A DNA stretch of 64,000 bases from a virus (Duplodnaviria; Caudoviricetes), in the IMG/VR virus record IMGVR_UViG_3300037484_000235, positions 32,001 to 96,000 of that record; one strand, given 5' to 3'. Below the pieces are notes generated by a model. The model was not told where the DNA came from, did no database searches, and saw nothing but the letters and a program-made list of their open reading frames with translations. Of the stretch, positions 4,661 to 43,466 are shown in pieces (positions within the stretch are counted from its first letter, which is position 1; every line of letters begins with the position of its first letter). The translations under genes were made by a program, and so were the position numbers.

Positions 4661-5341
4661 CTACCTTGTTGCAACCGCCCGCTCTTCGGAGGCGAGAGGC
4701 CGACGACGGAACGAGTGGTTGATTGAGTGCACATTCGCGATGCGCAGGAATCCGGGCTCATCATGCTTGAGCATGAGTGCCTGACTCAGCATCGTGTCCG
4801 CATCCGGAACCCCGTCTCGGGGGTGCGCACAGAGGGACCTGACGACCTTTCCGTTTTCGTCAAGGACATCCACGTTCGCGCTCCGCCCACGGTTGATCCG
4901 GTACTTCTTGCCGGACTTCGAGCAGAGCATGAACCAGTCCTGGTTGGTGAGCTGGGCCCGTTGTTCGTCCGTCAGGTGCGCTCGAAGTAGGGCTTCTGCT
5001 CGCCCGTCGGCTGCGGCGCGTTCACTGGCCCGGAGTGCATCCTTGACTGCCCACTCCTGGCGCCGAAGCTCATCGCGTGCAATCCGTTCCGTACGCTGGG
5101 CGTCAGTCTCTGGTGCGCGGGGTGCCGCTGCTGAAACGTAGGACTGAACCCAAAGTGGCCAGATACCACTTGTGCCAGCACTTGTAACGGAGAGCGTCTG
5201 GGAATTCCAGGCGTTCCACACAAGGCTATTTGTAGTATTGGTACAAGCCGTTGTGGAGGAGTCCAACCACCCCTTCCATATAAGAAGTGGTTTGGGGCTG
5301 TACACAGCCTCCGTCGGTGCCGTTATGACCGACGTGGGCAT
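4661..5341 (-). CDS. partner of ubiquitin-like protein (WxxW/ST-rich N-term, coiled coil, C-terminal LCAHP domain)
   Basis: start MPTSV 1 nt after stop of GG-ending ORF; motifs YRIxxG.NV, LCAHP, DxMLxQxLxL..DE..FL..AN. Confidence 0.7.
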   Translation of the reverse strand: MPTSVITAPTEAVYSPKPLLIWKGWLDSSTTACTNTTNSLVWNAWNSQTLSVTSAGTSGIWPLWVQSYVSAAAPRAPETDAQRTERIARDELRRQEWAVKDALRASERAAADGRAEALLRAHLTDEQRAQLTNQDWFMLCSKSGKKYRINRGRSANVDVLDENGKVVRSLCAHPRDGVPDADTMLSQALMLKHDEPGFLRIANVHSINHSFRRRPLASEERAVATR

Positions 5342-5342
5342 T

Positions 5343-5648
5343 TCAACCACCGGCCATTGGCGGGACAAGTACGACGCGTCCGGCCTTGGGGTCGAACTCG
5401 GTCATCTGGTCCCCGTTGACCCCCTTCTCATCGGTGCGGAAGGCGAGGTATCCCTTTGCCCGAAGGTCATCGAAGCTACGACGAGCATCGTCGCATTCGA
5501 TGACCTTCGTTGGATCCCAGATCTTTTTCACGTCCCCAGAGAGCCCCATCGTCTCGAAGACGAGGTTACCCTCTCGGACGAGAGCCTGTAGCGCATCCTC
5601 GTTGAGGACTTCCTTGGTTCCATCGTGCCGCTGAATCTCGAAATTCAT
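5343..5648 (-). CDS. ubiquitin/ThiS-MoaD-like small protein ending in di-glycine
   Basis: C-terminus RVVLVPPMAGG-stop resembles the last strand and GG of beta-grasp carriers. Confidence 0.6.
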   Translation of the reverse strand: MNFEIQRHDGTKEVLNEDALQALVREGNLVFETMGLSGDVKKIWDPTKVIECDDARRSFDDLRAKGYLAFRTDEKGVNGDQMTEFDPKAGRVVLVPPMAGG

Positions 5649-6233: not shown

Positions 6234-6673
6234 CACTGTTCGTCCCCGTCCTTACGTGACAGAGCCCCCTCATGTTCGTCCTTGAGACGCCGCAACGCCC
6301 ACGCATCGATTGCGGCGAAGAGGGCGGAGCGGACACTTTCTACGTGCGCCACGTCATCCGGGGCGAATCGTGATGCCTGCGCTTGTGTACACGCACCAGC
6401 ATGGTCACGCACCGCCGCCACGATTTCTGCATCGTTTTGCGATCCTACCACCCATGAAACCCCAGAGCACAAATCCCCGTAATTCTTGTGATCTCGGGGC
6501 ATGTCGCAGGTCACCCCAGGGAAACCGGGAATCGGATCCCCACAAAGGTCGTCTCTCTCGTAAAGACGACGATGCACGTCGACCGGTTCAGCACACAAGT
6601 CGCAAGTGTCGTAATCCTTTCCACGCCAGGGCTGGAATCGATGCGGAGCATACACTCTGTTTTCATTCGTCAT
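6233..6673 (-). CDS. hypothetical protein with CxxC motif
   Basis: start MTNENRV; CDLC..H. Confidence 0.6.
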   Translation of the reverse strand: MTNENRVYAPHRFQPWRGKDYDTCDLCAEPVDVHRRLYERDDLCGDPIPGFPGVTCDMPRDHKNYGDLCSGVSWVVGSQNDAEIVAAVRDHAGACTQAQASRFAPDDVAHVESVRSALFAAIDAWALRRLKDEHEGALSRKDGDEQ

Positions 6674-6869
6674 AGTCAGGTTCCCGATGAGAGAGGAGTG
6701 CACCGCAGATAACACCAGTGAAGGCAACTAGGATAGTCGTGATAATCCACCCAGCCCCACCATCTGGGAGATCACTGAATCGTGCCGTGGGTCCTAGAAC
6801 GATGAGTGCCACTACTGCGGGAAGCGTCACCGAAGTCATGGGAATTGCAAATGACAGAAATCGTCTCAT
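6663..6869 (-). CDS. small two-TM membrane protein
   Basis: start MRRFLSF; two hydrophobic segments. Confidence 0.6.
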   Translation of the reverse strand: MRRFLSFAIPMTSVTLPAVVALIVLGPTARFSDLPDGGAGWIITTILVAFTGVICGALLSHREPDYDE

Positions 6870-7186
6870 AGGCTTACACTGCGACGCCAGGAATCCATGA
6901 AGGAAGCCAGATTGAGTATGCCCACGGGGTTGGCCGAGTGCACCAGGAACATGGGAACGGCCTGCACCCCATCCCAGTACTCGTTCGCCAGCCACTTGAG
7001 AAAGTCCATGGCCCGATCCTCACCACCGAGGTCGTGATCCAGAGACATGAGCGCGGGCATCCCCCGCTCCGAGACCAGAGCCTTGGCTGCCTCAGTCGAA
7101 CGGGCAACCGTCCAGGGTGTCACGTCCATGGGAGAGGGATCCCTCAGGTCATCCAGGTACAAACTCCAGGTCACTGAGTCTTCCAC
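6866..7186 (-). CDS. cyclic-phosphate-processing receiver (cREC/REC-like) domain protein
   Basis: motifs LYLDDxR, WxxxR, SLDHDLG, HSANPVG. Confidence 0.8.
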   Translation of the reverse strand: MEDSVTWSLYLDDLRDPSPMDVTPWTVARSTEAAKALVSERGMPALMSLDHDLGGEDRAMDFLKWLANEYWDGVQAVPMFLVHSANPVGILNLASFMDSWRRSVSL

Positions 7187-7530
7187 TCTTCTACGAACTT
7201 ACGCATGTCCCGCTCTGCTTCCCACGAACCCGTGAGGTAGCGGACGGTGTGCGGTGGGTTGTTCGGGTACATCCGCTTGGCTTCCACCAGAACGTCCATA
7301 CCGTTCTCGTGACCGACGATGTTGAAATCGAGGTACATCACCTCGGGCGGTCCATAGCACTGGAGGTAGAACACGGCCATGTCGTAGCTGGTGGCCCACA
7401 AGAGAAGCGGAATCTCTTCCTGCTTCGTTTCGATCCCGTAGGGCATTGCCCCGTTGGGACCTTCCATGTTCGAGGGGAACGAGCGCGGGGTGCACACATC
7501 ATCCAGGAAGAGCTGCCACTTGATGCGCAT
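7171..7530 (-). CDS. divergent cyclic-phosphate receiver-like paralogue
   Basis: LFLDD..P, W..S...A, GPP.VMYLDF, G.D; lacks DHDLG and HSxN histidines. Confidence 0.55.
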   Translation of the reverse strand: MRIKWQLFLDDVCTPRSFPSNMEGPNGAMPYGIETKQEEIPLLLWATSYDMAVFYLQCYGPPEVMYLDFNIVGHENGMDVLVEAKRMYPNNPPHTVRYLTGSWEAERDMRKFVEEWKTQ

Positions 7531-7898: not shown

Positions 7899-8576
7899 CT
7901 ATGGGGGCCCAAGCCTGGTAGCAAGAGATGGTGCGTAGGGCTTTGCCGTACGCACCAGGTAGCCAGGTGCCCACGGATCAAGATCACAGGCAAGTCTGTA
8001 GACATCCGTCTCGGCGCAACCCTCGAACTGGGTGAGCCACTTACGTGCATTCTCCGGGGTGTACCTGGTATCCCCCCTTGAAATCGACTCTTCTATGAAT
8101 TCCCGAATCACGATGAGAGCAAGATCTCGCGGTAAAATGTACTCACATCGGGTTTCGTCATAGGATTCCCGTACATGGGTCACTGCGGGTCGACCATCCT
8201 GGAGGATGTATAATGTGACCTTCGTAGAGACCCCCGTCTCTTTGTTCCTCGGTAGGATTTCCTTGGTAGCACCTTCAAGAACATCTCGCATCGGATGTTC
8301 AGTAGATATGCAATCGTGACCCACGAGGTGTTTCGCCTCCCGCACATCGGAATCTTCCTTGGGTTCCCGAACACGTGCCTTGTGACCCATAGGGCACGGT
8401 CTTAGATTGGTGCATCTTTCGCCTGTGGAAAGTAGGACGTTGCATACAATGGTGCACCTCTCACACTCGACGCCCCAGTCTCCCTTCTTACCGACGAGCC
8501 TGCCGCCATTCGCAGCAACATATACGTCGCACCTTCGACATAGCCCCGCGTAGGAATTTGATCTTTTCTTCATCAC
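7899..8576 (-). CDS. hypothetical protein with N-terminal Zn-binding motifs
   Basis: CxxC...CxxC and C...CxxC..H pattern. Confidence 0.65.
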   Translation of the reverse strand: MMKKRSNSYAGLCRRCDVYVAANGGRLVGKKGDWGVECERCTIVCNVLLSTGERCTNLRPCPMGHKARVREPKEDSDVREAKHLVGHDCISTEHPMRDVLEGATKEILPRNKETGVSTKVTLYILQDGRPAVTHVRESYDETRCEYILPRDLALIVIREFIEESISRGDTRYTPENARKWLTQFEGCAETDVYRLACDLDPWAPGYLVRTAKPYAPSLATRLGPP

Positions 8577-8582
8577 CCGGGT

Positions 8583-8612
8583 AACGGATGAAGGAGATCA
8601 CTTTTCACGTTT
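8583..8612 (-). promoter_or_regulatory. promoter variant AAACGTGAAA-N16-CGTT
   Basis: same spacing, GAAA instead of GTAA. Confidence 0.65.
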
Positions 8613-8917
8613 CACGGTCTATCAGACTCACAGGTCATGGGTCTTGCGTTTTCAGCTGCTGGAAGGATCGCATTTGAGGTAGTGGTACACCCCACGGCCA
8701 TCGGATTGAGCCGCTTCTCGCAAGCGGTTTTCCGAACTGGGGCTCGTGTATCCCACACGACCAGGGTGTCTTCCAGAGAGTACAAAGCGATTGTGTGGTT
8801 GAGAGTTGTGTCTGTGCCAATGTTCAAGAGCTTGTGCAAGCCTGCGTCCTTCGAGTTCATTGCCACACGAGACGTGACGCGTGGATGAAGATACAGGTGT
8901 AAGGTGCAGAAGAAGTC

Positions 8918-9184
8918 ATGCATGGGTACCCCATAAACTTCAATGACCCAAGATACTCGAACAGGGTGTGTGGGTCTTGTAACTGTCAGACAGGGTGCTG
9001 CGCCAATCAAGCGCTTCTGAAGCGGATAGGGGATAATGCATATCTCCGCCAGAGACTTGCTCTTTGGGAGGGGATTATTGTTGGATCACATCCTCCTCCA
9101 TCAGAGCCACGAAAGAATCGGAAAGAACGCCGCTTGAAGGAGCACCTGTCTCGGTGTGGTCCACCTGCAAAAAGGCGTTGGTGA
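8918..9184 (+). CDS. hypothetical Cys-rich basic protein
   Basis: 88 aa, CGSCNC..CC. Confidence 0.45.
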   Translation: MHGYPINFNDPRYSNRVCGSCNCQTGCCANQALLKRIGDNAYLRQRLALWEGIIVGSHPPPSEPRKNRKERRLKEHLSRCGPPAKRRW

Positions 9185-9238
9185 CGTGGTATGAAAGCCC
9201 CGTTTTCAAGGCTCTATCCTGCGCTTAGGTAGGCCCCC

Positions 9239-9520
9239 ATGAGCAGCAGTAAACCCCAGTCAATTCCGGTCCAGATCAACAACGTCGTGGACATCCGATT
9301 TGCCAGGGTCAAGAAACTATCCAGAGCATTCTTTGCAGACTTGAACTCGGCAGTCCCAGATGACAGATTGGTGCCAATGGCATTTGAGTTCATTGAGACA
9401 CTCAGGGGCTCAGGACAAGTACCCACAGCGCCAGTTAAGAGGGTCATCCTCAAGCACGCGATGCTAGTAGCACTTCTTGACACGCTTCGGAGTGAGAAGG
9501 TGCGCCGGAATCGACCTTAG
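9239..9520 (+). CDS. hypothetical protein
   Basis: 93 aa ORF converging on minus operon. Confidence 0.5.
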   Translation: MSSSKPQSIPVQINNVVDIRFARVKKLSRAFFADLNSAVPDDRLVPMAFEFIETLRGSGQVPTAPVKRVILKHAMLVALLDTLRSEKVRRNRP

Positions 9521-9819
9521 TCGGTGAGGTACTCCCACAGACACCCATCGAAATGGACCCTTCGATTGATCTCTTCCCAGAGGGCGTACAACGCAGGTTC
9601 ACTACCTAGGATTTTGGCAGCAAAGTTGGAGTTGAGAACTGGACCTTCGGGGGTCCACAACACCAGAATGTCTTTCCCACCAAGATCTGAGATCTTGTCT
9701 GGGTGATCTGCAAAGTAGGTCAGGAGCCATCGGATGCGGTCAGCACGAATTTCCTGCTTCTGGTCCCTGGATTGCTCACCTGCTTCCGCAATCCCATCCA
9801 TCCATTCTTTTGTGCTCAT
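9517..9819 (-). CDS. hypothetical protein
   Basis: start MSTKEW, ATGA overlap. Confidence 0.6.
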   Translation of the reverse strand: MSTKEWMDGIAEAGEQSRDQKQEIRADRIRWLLTYFADHPDKISDLGGKDILVLWTPEGPVLNSNFAAKILGSEPALYALWEEINRRVHFDGCLWEYLTD

Positions 9820-10028
9820 AGCGCCAACTCCACTGCATGTTCCAGGGCACGAATGCACTCAGTGCACTTGGTATCCACGAATAGATCCAGCCCCCATCCG
9901 TGCTTGGCCAGAAGTCCACATTCCGCTTTTCTATCATGGTTCACGGCGTGCAGCTTCCAGCCAGTTTGAGCTGCTGAGTGACTGTTGCGTGGGTTTGTAG
10001 TACGCCACTTAGTCATGAGACCGCTCAA
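9816..10028 (-). CDS. hypothetical protein
   Basis: 70 aa, LHAV..CG..CxxC. Confidence 0.5.
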   Translation of the reverse strand: MSGLMTKWRTTNPRNSHSAAQTGWKLHAVNHDRKAECGLLAKHGWGLDLFVDTKCTECIRALEHAVELAL

Positions 10029-12321: not shown

Positions 12322-12855
12322 ATGACTGACGCCGATGACCGATCCACAAATGACGACCTGACTGATGACTACGACCCCAACGACTTAGGGGATCTCCAGT
12401 GTGGTATGATTTCATCCACAAGATCAGCGGTGTGTATTCTGAATCCTGGACATGGGGGTATGCACCGTGTCTTTTCCGTTACAACCCACAGTTTTGGACC
12501 CAGGAAGCCTATCCCATTTCCGGATCTGGAAAACATTAACCCAGGAATCCGAGAGACAGTCAGGCTCCTAAATCAGAATGGCTTCCGGACTACAGATAGT
12601 GGTGACGGAAAGACAGGTGACTATTCGTGTGACCGTCCCTACCCATACGTGTCGATTGCTTCAACCCGTGCGGGGTTGATCCAGGATGCAGACGACATCG
12701 CCTTTCTGTTCTCTGAGCACGGTGTTCAAGTCGGAGAACTCACCGAAGAGGGTGAAGGCCCCTACATCCAGGCGATGTACACCCCTCAGGTAAAAAACTG
12801 CGCAATCATCGACATTCAGAATGTCGATGACAAGCTGTTGGGGCTCGTACCCTAA
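12322..12855 (+). CDS. hypothetical protein
   Basis: 177 aa; GF.T.DSGDG motif. Confidence 0.65.
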   Translation: MTDADDRSTNDDLTDDYDPNDLGDLQCGMISSTRSAVCILNPGHGGMHRVFSVTTHSFGPRKPIPFPDLENINPGIRETVRLLNQNGFRTTDSGDGKTGDYSCDRPYPYVSIASTRAGLIQDADDIAFLFSEHGVQVGELTEEGEGPYIQAMYTPQVKNCAIIDIQNVDDKLLGLVP

Positions 12856-14459
12856 CCCTTGGTGACGTGCCCATCGTAGAAGTGGAAGAAGACCGGGACC
12901 CTCTCGATCCCCAGCTCCGCCGCAATGGCCAGTCGATGATTCCCTTCACCAACCTTGACTCCGCCTTTACGACCGATTTGGAGGTGCACGGTGCTCCCCT
13001 TCTTCCATCCTCGGCTGTTCATACTGTCCATCAGCTCGTCCCATTCATGTGGTTCCAGACGAGCCTTGTCCCGAGTCCAAACGTACTCCCTGTAGGGTAG
13101 TAGCTCAGACAGACGGACCATCACGGGCATGTCGTCCTCGTACATCTTGTCCCCGAGCTTTTGCCAGTTCGCAATCACGTCTCCCAGGCCCGTGTAGTTG
13201 GAGTAGTACCCAGCGGTACGACCACCATGTGTAACAGTGCCCAACGCCGCCCGCACGGCGTCCTGCAAACGGTCTGGTTGGAAGGCGAGCATTGGTGTGC
13301 TCAGCATCGCCTCGCGAGCTAGAGGGGCCAGTGCGCCCCGGTCTCGGCCCTGTAGGTTGAACTCTGTGATGAGGGCCGTGTTGTCGATCGGTGGCTTCTT
13401 GAGCTTCTCGAAGAACTCGTCAGCCTCATCGCTGATCATCCCCGTGGTGATTTCCCGGAGTCTGACTTGTTGAGGCTTCGTCAGGAAAGCTACGGGCTGC
13501 GACCCAAGCCCAAGGTCTGCCAGATCCAGAAGCAACGCCACCGCACGGTTCCCGTTGCTGAACTGCTTTGCCATGTACGAGGCAAACGGAGCCTCACTTT
13601 GGATCATTTCCGAGAGGGTCTCGATCAGGCCCAGGTGAGCCATTGTGAGAAGGGCCCCACGTGCATTAGGGGTGTCCAGAATGTCTTGCACCAAGATCGT
13701 GGCAATCGCCTCCCATGGCATCTTCTTCATCTTGGGGGCGTTACGCCGGACACTGGCCGCAACCTCATCGGTCAGATCAAGCTCGTACTTGATCGAGAAT
13801 TTAATCAGTCTGAGCATACGTGTTGGATCGTCGGAGAATGTTCGGTCCGGATCCAACGGTGTGTGGAGCATTCGCTCTTCGAGGTGCTGCACGCCAAGAC
13901 CCGTAAGGTCGATGACTTCTGCGTAGTCAGGTCCGTTTGCTAGGTCGAGCAGTCTCCAGAGCAGAGAATTGAGCGTGAAGTCGCGTCGATTTATATCCTC
14001 TTCGATGGTGGCTGGTTGGACATCGGTGGGCTTGTAGCCTTTTCCTTTCCCTTCGGCTCCACCGTAGGACTCTTTGCGCGCATTCGCGATTTCCAGAATT
14101 TCACCCTTCAGCGAGTGGCCCTCAAGTTCCCATTCTCCCTTAATTGTCAGTATGACAACCCCATACTGATTGGTTGTGAGATTCGTTGGGGCTGGGATAG
14201 CCTTGGCCAGTTGATTTGCAAACCACTCTGAGTTCTTGCCGAGCGCGATGGAATCTACGACGACGTCCAAATCATTGATTGGGTACTTGGATCCACCAGG
14301 GTCCATCATGAAGTTACGCACGGCCCCACCAACCACGTAAACGTGACTAGCCACACCCAATTCGATTGCTGTGCGAGACAAGAACTTCATCAGCGCCACT
14401 GAGCGTGCATGCGACCCAGCGTTGAGAAAGCGAGTTGCGACTTGAGATGCTTGATCCAT
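12852..14459 (-). CDS. cca: class II tRNA nucleotidyltransferase/poly(A) polymerase (CCA-adding type) fused to C-terminal ParB/sulfiredoxin-like domain
   Basis: VVGGAVR, DLDVVV, RKESY, EDINRRDFTLNSL, FSDDPTRMLR; C-term GEGNHRL..A..LG...VPV; no HD domain seen. Confidence 0.88.
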   Translation of the reverse strand: MDQASQVATRFLNAGSHARSVALMKFLSRTAIELGVASHVYVVGGAVRNFMMDPGGSKYPINDLDVVVDSIALGKNSEWFANQLAKAIPAPTNLTTNQYGVVILTIKGEWELEGHSLKGEILEIANARKESYGGAEGKGKGYKPTDVQPATIEEDINRRDFTLNSLLWRLLDLANGPDYAEVIDLTGLGVQHLEERMLHTPLDPDRTFSDDPTRMLRLIKFSIKYELDLTDEVAASVRRNAPKMKKMPWEAIATILVQDILDTPNARGALLTMAHLGLIETLSEMIQSEAPFASYMAKQFSNGNRAVALLLDLADLGLGSQPVAFLTKPQQVRLREITTGMISDEADEFFEKLKKPPIDNTALITEFNLQGRDRGALAPLAREAMLSTPMLAFQPDRLQDAVRAALGTVTHGGRTAGYYSNYTGLGDVIANWQKLGDKMYEDDMPVMVRLSELLPYREYVWTRDKARLEPHEWDELMDSMNSRGWKKGSTVHLQIGRKGGVKVGEGNHRLAIAAELGIERVPVFFHFYDGHVTKG

Positions 14460-14495
14460 GAGGGCTCCACCCAATGCAGAAAATAGACGGCTTCG

Positions 14496-35555: not shown

Positions 35556-36743
35556 TCACCAACCATCGGTTAGTGGTCTGTCAGAAATGTGAGAGGTGTC
35601 CCCCTCATTGACCAGGCCCCCCTTGATATGTGGGTCCATGATCCTCTTGACGTTCTCCCTAGTGTCAGCATCTGGCATTCCGTCGAGAACGACCCGGGCG
35701 GCACGTTTGAGAAGTACCTCAAGCGCTACTGTACGTGGTAGGATCTCCAGAAGATCCTCAGCCGCACTTGCCCACGAGCAGACTGTACGGTGGCTCCACT
35801 CACAGTAGACTTCTTCCTTCTCTACACCTTCACGTACTGCAAATGTAGCACGCATCATAGTGCTGATTGCATTCGGAGCACGTTCCGCGAGCAGGGGGAA
35901 CTTTGCTTTCGCGATTGGCTCTTCGTCACGTAGATCCATTGAGTGGAACTGAATCTTACGCTCGAAGCGATCCAAAATGGATGCATCAATTGGATTTGAT
36001 GAGATGCATCGTCCCGTAGTGTCTCCGGCACCCGATGAATTTGCGGTGGCTACGATGGTTGTACCAGGAAACACCGGATAGATTTCACCGGTTGGCCCGC
36101 TGATGCGACCCTGGATTGAATCCAGTATCTGACGAAGCTCCTCCGCTTGTTGGCGTGTGGCCCGATCAAAATCTGAGAGGATAATCAGGTAAGGTACGCG
36201 CCTTCCACTACCGGTCAAGTAACCGTCTCGGAGAGCCTTGAGAAGAACTCCCTCTTCCCACTTCGTTCCTTGGGCGTCAAAGCTTCGTGTGAACTTCCAG
36301 GATTGGAGATCAGCACCCTGGACGACAGAAAAGAGAAGCGAGGGACGCCTGGTCATAGCACAGAGTGCCGACACGGCTGCGTCTTTGCCAACTCCAGGGG
36401 CGCCCCACACCCAAATCGAACGGCATTTCTTGACTGCTACAGCTACGTCCTGTACATCCCTGGCGAGAGGGCCGTGGGTTGGAACAGTGTAATGTGCTGG
36501 CATTGGCAAACAGGCGGATGCAGGAACCTCTATGTCAACTGGAAATGTCACCCCCGCGAACTTCAGAGAGAGCCCCTCTACAGTAGCTTCTTTCCGCTTC
36601 CCTGTGGTGGCCTCCGGGTACTGCACTAGGTACCCATCGAGTGACAGATCGTGTTCGTTGACGAGGTGATCCCCAAGCCAATGGGCTTCTATGCCACAGA
36701 TACGGCACTTGGCGAGACCAGATTGGGTAGCGATCATGTTCAT
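35556..36743 (-). CDS. CobS-like/MoxR-family AAA+ ATPase with N-terminal C2H2 Zn finger
   Basis: CRIC..H..EH; Walker A GAPGVGKD; ATAN..G.GD; LDRF; start may be TTG at 36770. Confidence 0.85.
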   Translation of the reverse strand: MNMIATQSGLAKCRICGIEAHWLGDHLVNEHDLSLDGYLVQYPEATTGKRKEATVEGLSLKFAGVTFPVDIEVPASACLPMPAHYTVPTHGPLARDVQDVAVAVKKCRSIWVWGAPGVGKDAAVSALCAMTRRPSLLFSVVQGADLQSWKFTRSFDAQGTKWEEGVLLKALRDGYLTGSGRRVPYLIILSDFDRATRQQAEELRQILDSIQGRISGPTGEIYPVFPGTTIVATANSSGAGDTTGRCISSNPIDASILDRFERKIQFHSMDLRDEEPIAKAKFPLLAERAPNAISTMMRATFAVREGVEKEEVYCEWSHRTVCSWASAAEDLLEILPRTVALEVLLKRAARVVLDGMPDADTRENVKRIMDPHIKGGLVNEGDTSHISDRPLTDGW

Positions 36744-36797
36744 TTGAGGACTAGATTGAGCGGCAGCCAATCACTGATTGATTCCTTACGCTTTCCA

Positions 36798-36949: not shown

Positions 36950-36969
36950 GGGTGTGTAAGAAGGAGAAG

Positions 36970-39042
36970 ATGACCTCTACTACAGGTAAGGACATGATGG
37001 CAGGTTCGATTTCAGGGGCACGGGTGCGCTCGGGTCATCGGGCAAGCCTGTTTGGGATCTTGGGCAGAAAGATGATCCCCATCCACAGCAGTGGAACCGG
37101 ATTCATGATGCGGGGGCACTTCCCGTTCCGCCAGGTGCTCCAGAAGATAGTTGCGCACTCTAAAATCTCGGTTGACCCCCCCACTGATCTTATCTTCCGC
37201 AAGTGGGCCAGTCAAATCTCCAAGGACTCGAAGGTCAAACCGAGTATCCAAATCGCAGAGACAGGGGACCTGCTCACACGTCGTGAGTACATGGCACTGA
37301 TCGGAGGAGCGAATCATGAGGGGTGGCATCATCTCTACACTGCTCAGGGACCTGTGACAGGGGAAGAGTTGTCTCAATCTATCCTACCTGGCTATAGGGT
37401 CGGTGTACCGTACCACTTGTACCCCGATCTGTTGAGTGCATCCCAAAATGTCTTTGAGGACATCCACATTGAAAGGATTGGATGCGCGGAGTTTCCTGGT
37501 GCCTACACGAAGATGGCGGATCTGGCAGATTTCATTCTGGACCAGGAATCCAAAGCTCTCAAATCGAATCCTGAAACGAAAGAGTCTGCGGCTGGTACTG
37601 CGTTGTGTTTGATCCGTGAAGTTGGTTTCGGCTACAACACGGTGAAAACCAGAGCAGCGATGGATCACTATCGCTCGACGCACCCGGAAATCGTTGATCT
37701 TGTACTCAACGGTGCACTTTCGCCAGTCCTACGTGAGGCCATTCCGGATGTGTCCACACCGGCTGCAATCCTTCAAGCCAAAGAAAACAAGGGATTGTCT
37801 ACAACTCTTGCCCTTCGGTTTATTGCGCTGCTTCACGAACTGGTCGTGGCCCCACCTACCCCACCTGAACCGGAAAATCAAGGGGAGACACAACAGAACG
37901 ATCCAGAACAGGATCCAGAACAGGATGATCTGAAAGATCCGGAATCGAGTAATGGAGACCCGGTAGACCTCAGCAAGGAAGAAAGACCTGGAGGCACCTC
38001 CCCGGACGGTTCTGGTGAGGCTGCGGCGGCGATTCTCCAGTCTATACCCGATGGCGTGTTAGATTATGCGAGTGCTCTAGAGCAGGCTGTCTCAAATGCA
38101 CTCAAAGCGGAGGACAAGACCCAGGAAGCTGGCGAGATGCCCTACCGACCCTACACCACAACTCAAGATCAGACACTCAAACCTACGGAAAATGAGCCTG
38201 AAGCTCGTCTTCTAATCAAGAAGGTCATTGCCGGAACCAAGAGGGAGACATCGTTCCTTCGATCCAAGCTTCGACTCATGTTTCGTGCACTAGAGGATGG
38301 TGCCAGGTTCCATGGTGTTCGAAAAGGGACTGGGCTCTCTGAACGATTTCTGGTGGACACATTGGCTTCAATCCAAGATGGAAAGGACCCCTCTCGGGCT
38401 TTCTACGAGGACTCCACGTCGATGGACACATCGATAGCTGTTTGCATCGTAGTGGATGAGAGTTCCTCAATGTCTAGAAAGCTCAAAGACACAAGCGCAA
38501 TCCTCTACACCCTGTGTCAGTCCCTAGATTCGATTGAGGCTAACTTCTCTGTAGTGGGATTCCGTGACAGAGATATTGGCTATGTTCAGGGGGCGAAGAC
38601 CAATGTCGTTTACCACCGTCACGGTCCTATCACATACGACATTTTCAAGAGTTTTGAAGAAAAGTTCCGTAGCGTTTCATGGCGACTTGGGAACATCAAA
38701 GCAACCGGAGGCACTCCAATGGCCGATGGTATCGAGTTCGCCCTCAACGCTCTTTCAACACGACGGGAGGGGCACCGAATCCTTTTTGTAGTCACTGACG
38801 GTCAACCAAATCCAAACCACAGGCCAATCATTAAGGGTCAAATTCGCCGCGCCCAAGCGGCTGGTATTCTTGTCATCGGTGTGGGACTTGGAAAAGACGC
38901 CAGGTACGTTCAAACAACCTTCCCAGACAACGTGTGGGCCATGACCCTATCGAGTATCCCTGCTCTCCTTGTTGCCAAACTTCACGAAATGGTCAGAAAG
39001 ATTGGTACCTCTAAGCGAGGGATTCGAGTCAAGTCTGTCTGA
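36970..39042 (+). CDS. CobT-like vWA protein (HExxH N-term, acidic linker, MIDAS)
   Basis: NHEGWHH; VVDESSSM; GGTP; VVTDGQP; VIGVGLG. Confidence 0.85.
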   Translation: MTSTTGKDMMAGSISGARVRSGHRASLFGILGRKMIPIHSSGTGFMMRGHFPFRQVLQKIVAHSKISVDPPTDLIFRKWASQISKDSKVKPSIQIAETGDLLTRREYMALIGGANHEGWHHLYTAQGPVTGEELSQSILPGYRVGVPYHLYPDLLSASQNVFEDIHIERIGCAEFPGAYTKMADLADFILDQESKALKSNPETKESAAGTALCLIREVGFGYNTVKTRAAMDHYRSTHPEIVDLVLNGALSPVLREAIPDVSTPAAILQAKENKGLSTTLALRFIALLHELVVAPPTPPEPENQGETQQNDPEQDPEQDDLKDPESSNGDPVDLSKEERPGGTSPDGSGEAAAAILQSIPDGVLDYASALEQAVSNALKAEDKTQEAGEMPYRPYTTTQDQTLKPTENEPEARLLIKKVIAGTKRETSFLRSKLRLMFRALEDGARFHGVRKGTGLSERFLVDTLASIQDGKDPSRAFYEDSTSMDTSIAVCIVVDESSSMSRKLKDTSAILYTLCQSLDSIEANFSVVGFRDRDIGYVQGAKTNVVYHRHGPITYDIFKSFEEKFRSVSWRLGNIKATGGTPMADGIEFALNALSTRREGHRILFVVTDGQPNPNHRPIIKGQIRRAQAAGILVIGVGLGKDARYVQTTFPDNVWAMTLSSIPALLVAKLHEMVRKIGTSKRGIRVKSV

Positions 39043-41217: not shown

Positions 41218-41859
41218 GTCCGGAGTAGATTCTTCCGCAGGACCGTTGATACCAGACATCTGCGATGCAGTGTCAGCGAGTGCTCTGGGTAGTAACTCCC
41301 CGTACTGCTCAACGGGGAGCAAGAACTTGCCGTCCTTTGTCTTCCCTGAGGCATCAAGTCCCTTGAGGAATTCCCCCATGACCGTGTAGAGGAAGTGCCA
41401 GACCTCGGGATTGCCCTGGGCGACAGGGTCCCCCTTCGCTGCCCAGACGAACTTCTTGGCGCGATTGACCAAGGCGAACATCTCCCGGGGCTTCAGGGAA
41501 CACCACAGGATGGTTCGGGTGCCCGAGGGGGATAGCTGATTCGTCGTGGCATCAAGGTGTGCTTCCAGCACGCGCTTGAAGAGTGCGGTGCGGGTGACGG
41601 TCTTCCCCTCATAGATCTCCGGGAACGCAGGGCTCCACACCCCCTGCTCGTAGGAGGACAGGAGGAAGTTCGATCCGTGAATCAGCCAGAACTCGTAGCC
41701 CGTCTGCGGATTCAAGGTGAAGTGTTCCAGGGAGTGCTTCTTCTTCTCCCGAAACTTGGTGGCTTCGCGGGCCTTTTCGATTTGTCGGTCTTTGGACCTG
41801 GCACTTGCCTTTTTTGCTCGTGTGCCTGCCTTCTGTGCTTTGTTCTTTGACATTCCCAC
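41206..41859 (-). CDS. hypothetical protein
   Basis: 217 aa, basic N-terminus. Confidence 0.6.
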   Translation of the reverse strand: MGMSKNKAQKAGTRAKKASARSKDRQIEKAREATKFREKKKHSLEHFTLNPQTGYEFWLIHGSNFLLSSYEQGVWSPAFPEIYEGKTVTRTALFKRVLEAHLDATTNQLSPSGTRTILWCSLKPREMFALVNRAKKFVWAAKGDPVAQGNPEVWHFLYTVMGEFLKGLDASGKTKDGKFLLPVEQYGELLPRALADTASQMSGINGPAEESTPDSDG

Positions 41860-41888
41860 ACCTTACACCCGGCGTAACGTACAACGTG

Positions 41889-43466
41889 ATGAATCCTGTT
41901 CTTGATCAGCAGAGGGCGTGGGAGCTTCTTTCGAGTGGCGCCCATGAAGTTGCACGCGTCGTGTCCAAGACCTTCGGCCCTGCGGGCGGCAAGGTCATGA
42001 TAGAGAAGGCAGGGTCGGTCCTTGTAACGACTGATGGGGCCGCACTCACACGCGAGACTCAGCTTGACGGTGCGAAGAGACTGGGTGCGACCCTCATCCG
42101 ATCTGCCGCAATCAAGACCGATGAGCAAGTTGGAGATGGGACTTCCACAACGGTGATCTTGGCGGACGCTCTCATCCGGGAGATTGGAAAGAGGGCTTGT
42201 GTGCACGGCTGGGATCCGGTGTGCACGGTAGCTCAAATCCGAGAAGCTCATCTGGAGGCAGAGGGTCAGATTCAGCATATGTCCCGCCTCGCAGATCGTG
42301 AGTGTTTGGATCGGATAGCCCTCATGGCTTCCCATGAAGACCCACTCATTGCCGAGAAGGTAGTTGAGGCGGTGCTTGCAGTAGGCGAGGGCGGGTCCGT
42401 GGTGATCTCGCCCTACGAGGGGACGGGGATTGTCCTTGAGCAGAAGGCCGGACTTTATCTCAATCAAGGGTGGACCTCCTTCGATATGGCACCGGCAGAC
42501 GGATCCACCGAGCGGGAGATGGATGGGCCTCTCGTGGCCGTGTTCCGCCAAGGACTTCGACGGGTGGGTGACATTGCGACTGCGATGGAGCAAGCGAGTC
42601 AGTGGCCGGGTCGTGGTCTCGTGGTGTTTGCGCCCAGTATCCAGGGGGATGCCCTCAAGACCCTCTTGGTCAATGACAAGAAGGGCGTGCTCTCGTGTGT
42701 GGGTGTCGAGTACTCGGGGTCATCTGCGGACCTGGACGACTGGCTTGAGGACATCTCGGCAGTCACCAATTCGATGATCGTGGATACAGGGACAGGGATG
42801 TCCCCTGAGAAGTTCGAGGGGTCGTGGTTGGGTTCCGCTCGAAGAGTGACCCTGACTCGGGAACACACACTCGTCGTCTCCTACCTGGATGGGGATATTC
42901 CCCAGAAGATTGATCTGAGAGTTGCCCAGCTTCGGGCGCGAGCCGAGGTCTCCCCCTACCCCTACGAGAAGGCCAAGCTCACGGAGCGTGCTTCGGCGAT
43001 CGATGGGGGCCTCTGTACGCTGCGGATCGGTGGACTCACCAAGCAGGAGGGTCAGGACCGTCGCTCACGGGTCGAGGATGCCCTCAAGGCTGTGCAGACG
43101 TGTCTGAGGGGCGGCGTGGTTCCTGGAGCGGGCTACGCGCTGTTCAGGGCCTGTGTGTGGCTCCCTCAGACCGAGGGCGGCGTGATACTGGACAGGGCTC
43201 TCATGTCGGTCCTGGGCACGCTGGCGAGCCGGGCGGGGGCAGAGCCTCAGACCGTTTTTCGGGAGGGCATGGAGGTCACTCTGTACGATCCCGATGGGTG
43301 GTACGGGTGGGATCCACTGCTTGGGGATTGGCGAGACTTCTGGGTGACGGCCCCACGAATCGTAGACCCCACTGAAGTCGTGTTGGCAGCTCTTAGGAAT
43401 GCCGTATCCGTTGCTTGTCAGATCGCTTTGTGCGGGGTGGTCCTTGGAGTGCACCCAAAACGATAA
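41889..43466 (+). CDS. groEL: divergent GroEL-like chaperonin
   Basis: TFGPAG, TTDG, GDGTST, GGVVPGAG, IVDPTEV..AL.NA.SVA; no GGM tail. Confidence 0.85.
   Translation: MNPVLDQQRAWELLSSGAHEVARVVSKTFGPAGGKVMIEKAGSVLVTTDGAALTRETQLDGAKRLGATLIRSAAIKTDEQVGDGTSTTVILADALIREIGKRACVHGWDPVCTVAQIREAHLEAEGQIQHMSRLADRECLDRIALMASHEDPLIAEKVVEAVLAVGEGGSVVISPYEGTGIVLEQKAGLYLNQGWTSFDMAPADGSTEREMDGPLVAVFRQGLRRVGDIATAMEQASQWPGRGLVVFAPSIQGDALKTLLVNDKKGVLSCVGVEYSGSSADLDDWLEDISAVTNSMIVDTGTGMSPEKFEGSWLGSARRVTLTREHTLVVSYLDGDIPQKIDLRVAQLRARAEVSPYPYEKAKLTERASAIDGGLCTLRIGGLTKQEGQDRRSRVEDALKAVQTCLRGGVVPGAGYALFRACVWLPQTEGGVILDRALMSVLGTLASRAGAEPQTVFREGMEVTLYDPDGWYGWDPLLGDWRDFWVTAPRIVDPTEVVLAALRNAVSVACQIALCGVVLGVHPKR

Follow-up and report, generated by a model that had tools for sequence, protein, structure and literature searches.

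The window analyzed here (64,000 nucleotides, bases 32001-96000 of the 252,521-bp IMG/VR virus record IMGVR_UViG_3300037484_000235, Duplodnaviria, Caudoviricetes, rated 57% complete) encodes a 101-amino acid (aa) protein that ends in Gly-Gly (GG), P0001, and, immediately downstream of it, a 226-aa partner, P0002. The two genes form an obligate, translationally coupled phage module, and the GG ending of the small protein is conserved far beyond chance in a large family of homologs. The proteins are predicted to form a 1:1 complex with the P0001 tail placed on a loop of P0002 that carries a conserved Cys, and the pair may represent an undescribed minimal protein-tagging or carrier system. The features of the locus are as follows:

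5343..5648 (-): gene for P0001, the 101-aa GG-terminated protein, read from the sequence (coding sequence 5346-5648, stop TGA 5343-5345)
5346..5366 (-): P0001 tail V95-P-P-M-A-G-G101, which fits the family motif [VAS]-P-[PQ]-[ML]-x-G-G
5339..5345 (-): junction TGA-A-ATG, comprising the P0001 stop, the single base A5342, and the partner ATG (5339-5341)
4661..5341 (-): gene for P0002, the 226-aa partner (coding sequence 4664-5341, stop 4661-4663)
5132..5341 (-): P0002 residues 1-70, S/T-rich and Trp-rich with three WxxW motifs, predicted to be disordered
4979..5104 (-): P0002 residues 80-121, a long coiled-coil-like helix (AlphaFold predicted local distance difference test [pLDDT] >95), the C-terminal part of which touches P0001 in the predicted complex
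4697..4969 (-): P0002 residues 125-215, a core of an alpha-helix, a four-strand meander, and two helices, weakly RWD/UBC/UEV-like
4820..4831 (-): codons TGT GCG CAC CCC for Cys171-Ala-His173-Pro174, at the end of strand 4 of P0002

The C-terminal letters of P0001 are EFDPKAGRVVLVPPMAGG. Both the GG end of the 101-aa reading frame and the partner start one base after it, which the initial annotation of this DNA had described, were confirmed in the sequence, as were the features that it had assigned to the partner, namely three WxxW motifs in an S/T-rich stretch, a coiled coil (modeled as the helix of residues 80-121), and an LCAHP-containing core. The GGT GGT codons directly 5' of the junction resemble a Shine-Dalgarno site. 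Each gene is present in one copy in the genome of the window, and scans for promoters, terminators, and Rfam families around the pair yielded no match.

A two-gene module of large phages

Linkage of the two genes was assessed with hidden Markov model searches of all open reading frames (ORFs) in the fetched loci that have downstream DNA. In each of 29 loci (24 from IMG/VR, the window, Virus Rctr197k, and three contigs), the GG gene is directly followed by the partner gene, and the same order was observed in LR756511, two metagenome-assembled genome (MAG) contigs, and locus L077; in L079, the partner is present with one small gene in between. The tight pairing first noticed in the window was thus borne out by the neighborhood survey, the partner following the GG gene in all 32 loci counted with downstream DNA and adjoining it in 31. 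In most loci, stop and start overlap by up to 4 nt or are separated by up to about 6 nt. All-against-all clustering of the ORFs from 30 loci detected no third conserved gene, only the pair being common, and therefore the module consists of exactly two genes; one sub-clade has additional conserved neighbors without a Pfam match along with a baseplate-like protein. The TGA-A-ATG junction of the window locus would permit a +1 fusion of the two products. A programmed frameshift or read-through fusion was nevertheless rejected because the frame of the partner relative to the GG gene varies among 0, +1, and +2.

The family of the small protein was delineated with a profile built from P0001 and nine close homologs, and its size is counted in clusters represented at 50% identity. 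With a cutoff of E ≤ 1e-3, the profile search retrieved 2,330 clusters, and with the stricter E ≤ 1e-10, 947. The IMG/VR carriers comprise 25 loci on contigs of 14-436 kb. In GenBank, a tblastn search with three members against 50,697 phages had hits in just two of them, Virus Rctr197k (197 kb) and a phage of 595 kb; both are uncultured, and therefore no cultured carrier is at hand. Among 185,579 species genomes, scanned with narrow patterns, only two MAG contigs were detected. The family is therefore essentially viral, being found almost wholly in uncultured large phages. We did not find a description of this GG family in the literature. Neither P0001 nor P0002 showed a meaningful match in Pfam, PHROGs, NCBIfam, or PADLOC, so that the module amounts to a very large, unnamed, almost exclusively viral family that lies outside these collections.

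The 436-kb phage L007 encodes three partner paralogs (6590-7306 [-], 8298-8990 [+], and 8980-9843 [+]) around one GG gene; one of these paralogs has lost the conserved His (C-V-I-F), an indication that the partner may be diversifying. In Virus Rctr197k (KX853510; L001 4321-4575 and 11539-12195), the pair is located between two annotated CRISPR repeat regions, together with transposase-like genes.

The two proteins and their predicted complex

Nearly all alignments of the GG family extend to the last residue of proteins of 74-125 aa. The conserved core spans about 74 aa, the first 30 residues of P0001 being a lineage-specific addition. Statistics for the tail were derived from the best 150 family representatives. 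Of these, 144 have G in the last profile column and the remaining six have alignment gaps there, and the penultimate column is G in 141 and A in three. The C-terminus falls exactly at GG in 125 of the 150 proteins, 15 others have 1-3 extra residues, and 10 have 26-120. All nine close homologs of P0001 also end in GG, and the P-P-M preceding it is maintained at the protein level. Non-conservation of GG among homologs had been named as an observation that would speak against a ubiquitin-like role; the opposite was found. Such a combination, in which most members have a free GG and a minority have a removable tail, is characteristic of ubiquitin-type proteins. In L077, the extension of about 120 residues after GG belongs to a real gene with a partner gene downstream and is therefore not an overlap artifact. 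In tandem two-domain forms (Rctr197k, P0131, and P0159), only the last domain keeps the tail. No informative domain was recognized in the N- and C-terminal extensions of family members.

A separate case is L028 (7929-8687 [+]), from a complete 210-kb phage, where the GG gene has no stop after GG and continues for about 165 codons that overlap the partner in another frame. The run-on may be due to loss of the stop, or the gene may encode a genuine precursor form.

The P0001 tail resembles the FFPPVTGG end of MoaD. When the family profile was compared using hhalign with an alignment of 31 ThiS/MoaD sequences from bacterial loci, similarity was detected at P 0.0011, surpassing all 30 column shuffles (best, 0.036), in line with the MoaD- or ubiquitin-like C-terminus recognized earlier. 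At the sequence level, this similarity is confined to the tail. None of 126 family members matched Pfam ThiS, and the family profile found no match among the PDB sequences. The order of the secondary structure elements in P0001, strand-strand-helix-strand-strand-strand, fits the beta-grasp fold (sheet order 2-1-5-3-4 with a crossing helix). The AlphaFold2 (AF2) monomer model reached a pLDDT of 76, with residues 31-36, the presumed first core strand, below 50. Among the structures listed for this model, there was no ubiquitin, ThiS, or MoaD, and the top rows, at Z 3.4-4.8, consisted of a kinase N-lobe, a calpain domain, and HIT proteins; the highest Z values, 4.5 and 4.8, belong to unrelated proteins. 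The Atlas search returned only the protein's own family, and in a language-model search, a ThiS-named cluster came up at 0.77, a value too low to rely on. The beta-grasp fold of P0001 is, accordingly, unproven.

P0002 has 24 homologs with E values of 1e-17 to 1e-63, and a Pfam search of 24 members of the partner family gave no match at E ≤ 1. The WxxW motifs of P0002 are W21/W24, W42/W45, and W61/W64; in the partner alignment, W42 and W61 are invariant, and W45 and W64 are nearly so. The AlphaFold model assigns residues 1-57 a pLDDT below 50, and the Trp-rich N-terminal region is missing from minimal homologs of 145 aa. Nearly all partners begin with Met-Pro (or Met-Ala/Val), so that removal of Met would expose residue 2. 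Disordered N-termini that are rich in W/Y and S/T/Q/N and contain repeated WxxW(N) were also observed in the partners of L012, L015-L017, L022, L024, and L027. Candidate functions for this region would be the binding of targets, condensate formation, or provision of an acceptor N-terminus.

The core of P0002 was modeled at pLDDT >95 as helix 125-134, strands 136-140, 146-150, 157-160, and 166-171, and helices 180-193 and 195-201. It contains the motif LC171AH173P...P179.D.D182TML.Q187. Across 31 divergent partners, Cys171 is invariant (31/31), as the emphasis of the initial annotation on this residue would lead one to expect, His173 is found in 29, and Asp182 in all. RGRxxN (R151-G-R153), Gln187, and a closing Ala-Asn are likewise conserved.

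A Foldseek search with the P0002 model produced nothing at E ≤ 0.001. In an exhaustive VIA search of 48,161 chains, the top five matches were RWD, RWD, Ubc9, RWD, and FANCL:

2daw: RWDD2, Z 4.3
2yz0: GCN2 RWD domain, Z 4.2
4y1l: Ubc9, Z 4.1
7e2k: human GCN2 RWD, Z 3.6
3k1l: FANCL, Z 3.6

The top 40 rows also include further RWD, FANCL-DRWD, Tsg101-UEV, and VPS37A-UEV entries; a second-look VIA search of the PDB with the same model added nothing. Such low Z values would say little in isolation. Because the whole top of the list belongs to one superfamily and the helix, four-strand meander, helices order matches, the P0002 core appears to bear a real, albeit weak and distant, resemblance to the RWD/E2/UEV fold. 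RWD domains have a Y-P-x-x-x-P loop at the position where the partner has H-P-x-x-x-x-P; the two are similar, which we consider a lead rather than a test. No longer, fused forms of the partner core were found, which is weak evidence.

Complex prediction for P0001 and P0002 gave ipSAE values of 0.90, 0.91, and 0.90 compared to 0.55 for the best control, a mark that 58 of 80 solved complexes attain, as do 2 of 110 mismatched pairs, although these counts hold only roughly given that custom alignments were supplied here. The three runs had at least 97% of the contacts in common, with P0001 at a pLDDT of at least 92. In the predicted complex, tail residues 95-101 contact partner residues 171-179 (the Cys-x-His-Pro loop) and 154-155, beside Arg-Gly-Arg, and P0001 residues 32-39, 68-72, and 93-95 contact the partner helices 107-124 and 182-194. 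Strand residues 34, 68/70, and 93/95 of P0001 are predicted to touch the same partner side chains, within helices 114-122 and 182-193, and therefore its strands 32-36, 91-97, and 68-72 would run side by side in the order 1-5-3. From this predicted interface, we infer an arrangement that corresponds to the center of a beta-grasp sheet. This sheet face is the one that ubiquitin uses for most of its partners.

Proposed chemistry, activation, and alternative explanations

We tentatively favor covalent carrier/enzyme chemistry, with a ubiquitin-like (Ubl) carrier and a Cys enzyme, the carrier being activated in trans or via precursor cleavage, and would put this at not quite an even chance. P0001 would be the small carrier, its working part being a flexible MoaD/ubiquitin-style tail with a free Gly-Gly carboxylate, and P0002 would be the dedicated partner, the core of which provides the invariant Cys, the near-invariant His, and the conserved Asp. 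One face of the P0001 sheet would dock on the two main helices of P0002, placing the tail along the Cys-x-His-Pro loop. Cys171 could then accept Gly101 as a thioester (or an acyl-disulfide) and pass it on in an E2-like manner, with His173 and Asp182 assisting the acyl chemistry at Gly101. Two routes of activation can be envisaged. The carrier might be adenylated in trans by a host MoeB/ThiF-type enzyme, which a MoaD-like tail would suit. Alternatively, in tailed precursors, the partner Cys could attack the Gly-X peptide bond, as the E2 does in E2-CBASS (CBASS, cyclic oligonucleotide-based antiphage signaling system). A more specific version, in which the phages tag proteins using a MoaD/ubiquitin-like modifier and an RWD/E2-like Cys enzyme with no dedicated E1, relying on host MoeB/ThiF or a new activation route, is a doubtful but serious candidate.

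The initial annotation had proposed a minimal conjugation pair. The obligate pairing, the GG, the invariant Cys, the structural neighbors (RWD, Ubc9, FANCL, and UEV), and the predicted position of the tail on the Cys-His loop agree with this proposal; the expected E2 profile similarity and HPN-Cys order did not materialize.

Several observations weigh against covalent chemistry of this kind. The structural Z scores of P0002 are all below 5 (3.6-4.3), its comparison with five Prok-E2_B domains by hhalign gave P 0.44, and no Pfam E2 family matched. Cys171 is located two residues before His-Pro, unlike the E2 Cys, which follows HPN by about 8-10 residues. The AF2 model of P0001 matched no beta-grasp structure in Foldseek, VIA, second-look VIA, or Atlas searches, and the similarity to ThiS/MoaD is lost once the last eight columns are removed (P 0.12). 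The GG codons sit where the ribosome-binding site of the partner would be, and one control in the complex test scored 0.55. Finally, a free carboxylate needs activation before a thioester can form, and no ThiF-type E1 was detected in carriers rated 100% (190, 210, 162, and 118 kb), 98% (115 kb), or 91% (194 kb) complete, nor in the 57%-complete record of the window. With regard to the order of residues, the partners have no Cys downstream of His-Pro, and the fetched Prok-E2_B sequences show P-H-V-x-x-D-G-x-L-C. Judged by its sequence, P0002 is not an E2. The 2006 survey of prokaryotic Ubl systems (PMC1779556) records E2-like families of bacteria in which the His is not where the classical HPN would have it.

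The source of activation was considered further. Neither ThiF (PF00899) nor Prok-JAB had a match in the 252.5-kb record, so that the absence of E1, JAB, and ThiF genes noted near the pair extends to the whole record, and a Pfam search of 85 window ORFs identified no adenylating enzyme and no JAB. In three larger carriers (436 kb, 595 kb, and Rctr197k), a gene for a short ThiF-like protein (about 200 aa) is located 56-190 kb away from the pair; in two of the three, a Prok-JAB gene adjoins this ThiF-like gene, amid uncharacterized neighbors. These loci are:

L030, G001 335288-338830: ThiF-like locus
L075, LR756511 279203-282730: ThiF-like locus
L076, KX853510 175535-178906: ThiF-like locus

Given the distance of 56-190 kb, ThiF/JAB is a cassette separate from the GG pair, although an action in trans on the pair is conceivable in principle. 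The module is independent of a phage-encoded canonical E1. Because most carrier phages lack an E1 of their own, activation would come in trans from the host, and MoeB/ThiF-type enzymes were found in 14 of 14 control genomes, that is, are near-universal.

Among the alternatives to covalent chemistry, the one that fares best, which we still consider rather unlikely, is a stable non-covalent heterodimer with a regulatory or structural role, in which the GG tail anchors in a groove of the partner, the Arg-Gly-Arg loop holds the carboxylate, and the Cys serves for structure, redox sensing, or metal binding. Of all this, binding itself has direct support, through the complex prediction, and the interface includes partner residues 154-155, next to the invariant R151-G-R153. 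RWD and UEV, which are non-catalytic E2 relatives, are among the best structural matches of P0002, and the lack of an E1 fits as well. However, an invariant Cys with His and Asp nearby in a cytoplasmic protein points to catalysis, and the 1-120 residues that follow GG in some members would block the carboxylate anchor unless processed, the partner being the only constant candidate for such a processor. Even if the proteins do no more than bind, they would still make up a two-protein complex that is widespread and strictly conserved in large phages and that has a well-defined predicted interface.

Counter-defense or host takeover appears less plausible still. Here, P0001 would mimic a MoaD/ThiS/Ubl tail for a host E1 (MoeB/ThiF, Bil, Bub, or type II CBASS), and the partner would trap or discharge the activated species. 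This would account for the MoaD-like tail, the almost wholly viral distribution, the lack of an E1 in the phages, and the position of the pair among auxiliary genes (cREC receiver, NADAR, SET, and nucleotide metabolism), but the PADLOC models of Ubl defense match neither protein, and the breadth of the family suggests a more general role than countering sporadic defenses.

We regard a sulfur carrier of the MoaD-MoaE type as improbable. In this case, a C-terminal thiocarboxylate of P0001 would enter the partner, which would thiolate a small molecule or a nucleic acid. A GG protein of 75-100 aa followed, with a stop/start overlap, by a partner of at least about 145 aa parallels moaD-moaE, where the start of MoaE is 0-22 nt beyond MoaD in the bacterial loci retrieved; MoaD has the same tail motif, and in the predicted complex, the P0001 tail enters a conserved pocket. 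The partner itself is unlike MoaE, however (hhalign against 10 MoaE sequences, P 0.54-0.98; no Pfam MoaE match), its fold matches RWD/E2, and no E1, rhodanese, or other molybdenum cofactor gene turned up in the window.

A toxin-antitoxin-like arrangement, with the partner as a Cys-His-Asp hydrolase inhibited by the product-like tail of P0001 in its active site, is very improbable. Type II modules typically have a small first gene in tight coupling with a larger second one, and the tail is predicted to lie on a catalytic-looking loop; however, such modules abound in cellular genomes, from which this family is almost absent, and the phage has one copy only. The family also has no DNA-binding domain and ends in a strict GG that is not a known feature of antitoxins. 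The suggestion that GG has no protein function, its GGN GGN codons being kept as the ribosome-binding site of the partner, can practically be dismissed: in most loci, the codons are indeed found 4-8 nt ahead of the partner gene, but GG persists at distant starts (40-90 nt in L007 and L013) and before the L077 extension, occurs with every synonymous GGN combination, including GGC GGC, a poor Shine-Dalgarno sequence, and is accompanied by protein-level conservation of P-P-M and by confident tail contacts in the predicted complex.

Further genes of the window, which has the auxiliary content of a very large phage, include:

6866-7186 (-): 106-aa protein with a cREC_REC "cyclic-phosphate processing receiver" domain (PF20274, E 4e-19), 1.2 kb upstream of the P0001-P0002 pair on the same strand
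12855-14474 (-): PolyA_pol-family nucleotidyltransferase
35559-36770 (-): AAA_5 (MoxR-type) ATPase, divergent from the VWA gene, with which it forms a MoxR-VWA pair
36952-39039 (+): 696-aa VWA-domain protein, adjoining the MoxR-type ATPase gene
41805-43463 (+): Cpn60-type chaperonin

Thymidylate synthase, dCTP deaminase, a NADAR domain, and a SET domain are also encoded in the window.

Comparison with known systems

The pair can be likened to a Ubl and its E2 or to MoaD and MoaE, but is a member of neither group as far as sequence comparison goes. The similarities to MoaD/ThiS (PF02597) include the small core of about 74 aa, the strand-strand-helix-strand-strand-strand order, and the [FV]-P-P-[VM]-x-G-G end. 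As in MoaD-MoaE, the molybdopterin (MPT) synthase, the GG gene is directly upstream of, and coupled to, the gene for a tail-receiving partner of about 150 aa, the receipt of the tail being a prediction in the phage pair. The differences are that the GG family has no Pfam ThiS match, the partner is unrelated to MoaE, most carrier phages lack MoeB/ThiF, and the family is viral.

To our knowledge, bacterial ubiquitin-like conjugation has so far been described as host defense (Bil, Bub, and type II CBASS), always with an E1, and we know of no E1-less case other than E2-CBASS. The bacterial Ubl operons (classes 6a-6e, PMC1779556; Bil, Bub, and type II CBASS Cap2/Cap3) resemble the phage module in that a small GG protein is encoded beside a Cys protein with an E2/RWD-like core. 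In these operons, a ThiF-type E1 is a constant component and a JAB a usual one, whereas the phage module has neither; furthermore, the Cys of the phage partner precedes His-Pro, and the partner has no Prok-E2_B or PADLOC similarity. The operons are found in host defense islands, whereas the GG pair is carried by phages.

The E2 of E2-CBASS works without an E1, cleaving the C-terminal tail of the cGAS-like cyclase and becoming covalently linked to it (PMC12948482). The chemistry proposed here would be similar in that an E2-fold protein acts, without an E1, on the C-terminal glycine region of a substrate encoded by the neighboring gene. The substrate in E2-CBASS, however, is a cyclase with a C-terminal extension, whereas the window protein and 125 of the 150 representatives already end at GG; for a substrate of 75-100 aa that ends there, therefore, no peptide-bond energy is available, unlike in E2-CBASS. 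Both phage proteins are small and appear soluble, which makes them amenable to simple experiments. If the pair does conjugate, a virus would be tagging proteins with a minimal kit, and the source of the activation energy becomes the question. If the tagging proceeds without a dedicated E1, the module would constitute a third kind of Ubl conjugation in the prokaryotic world, one used by viruses, beside the E1-E2-JAB operons and E2-CBASS.

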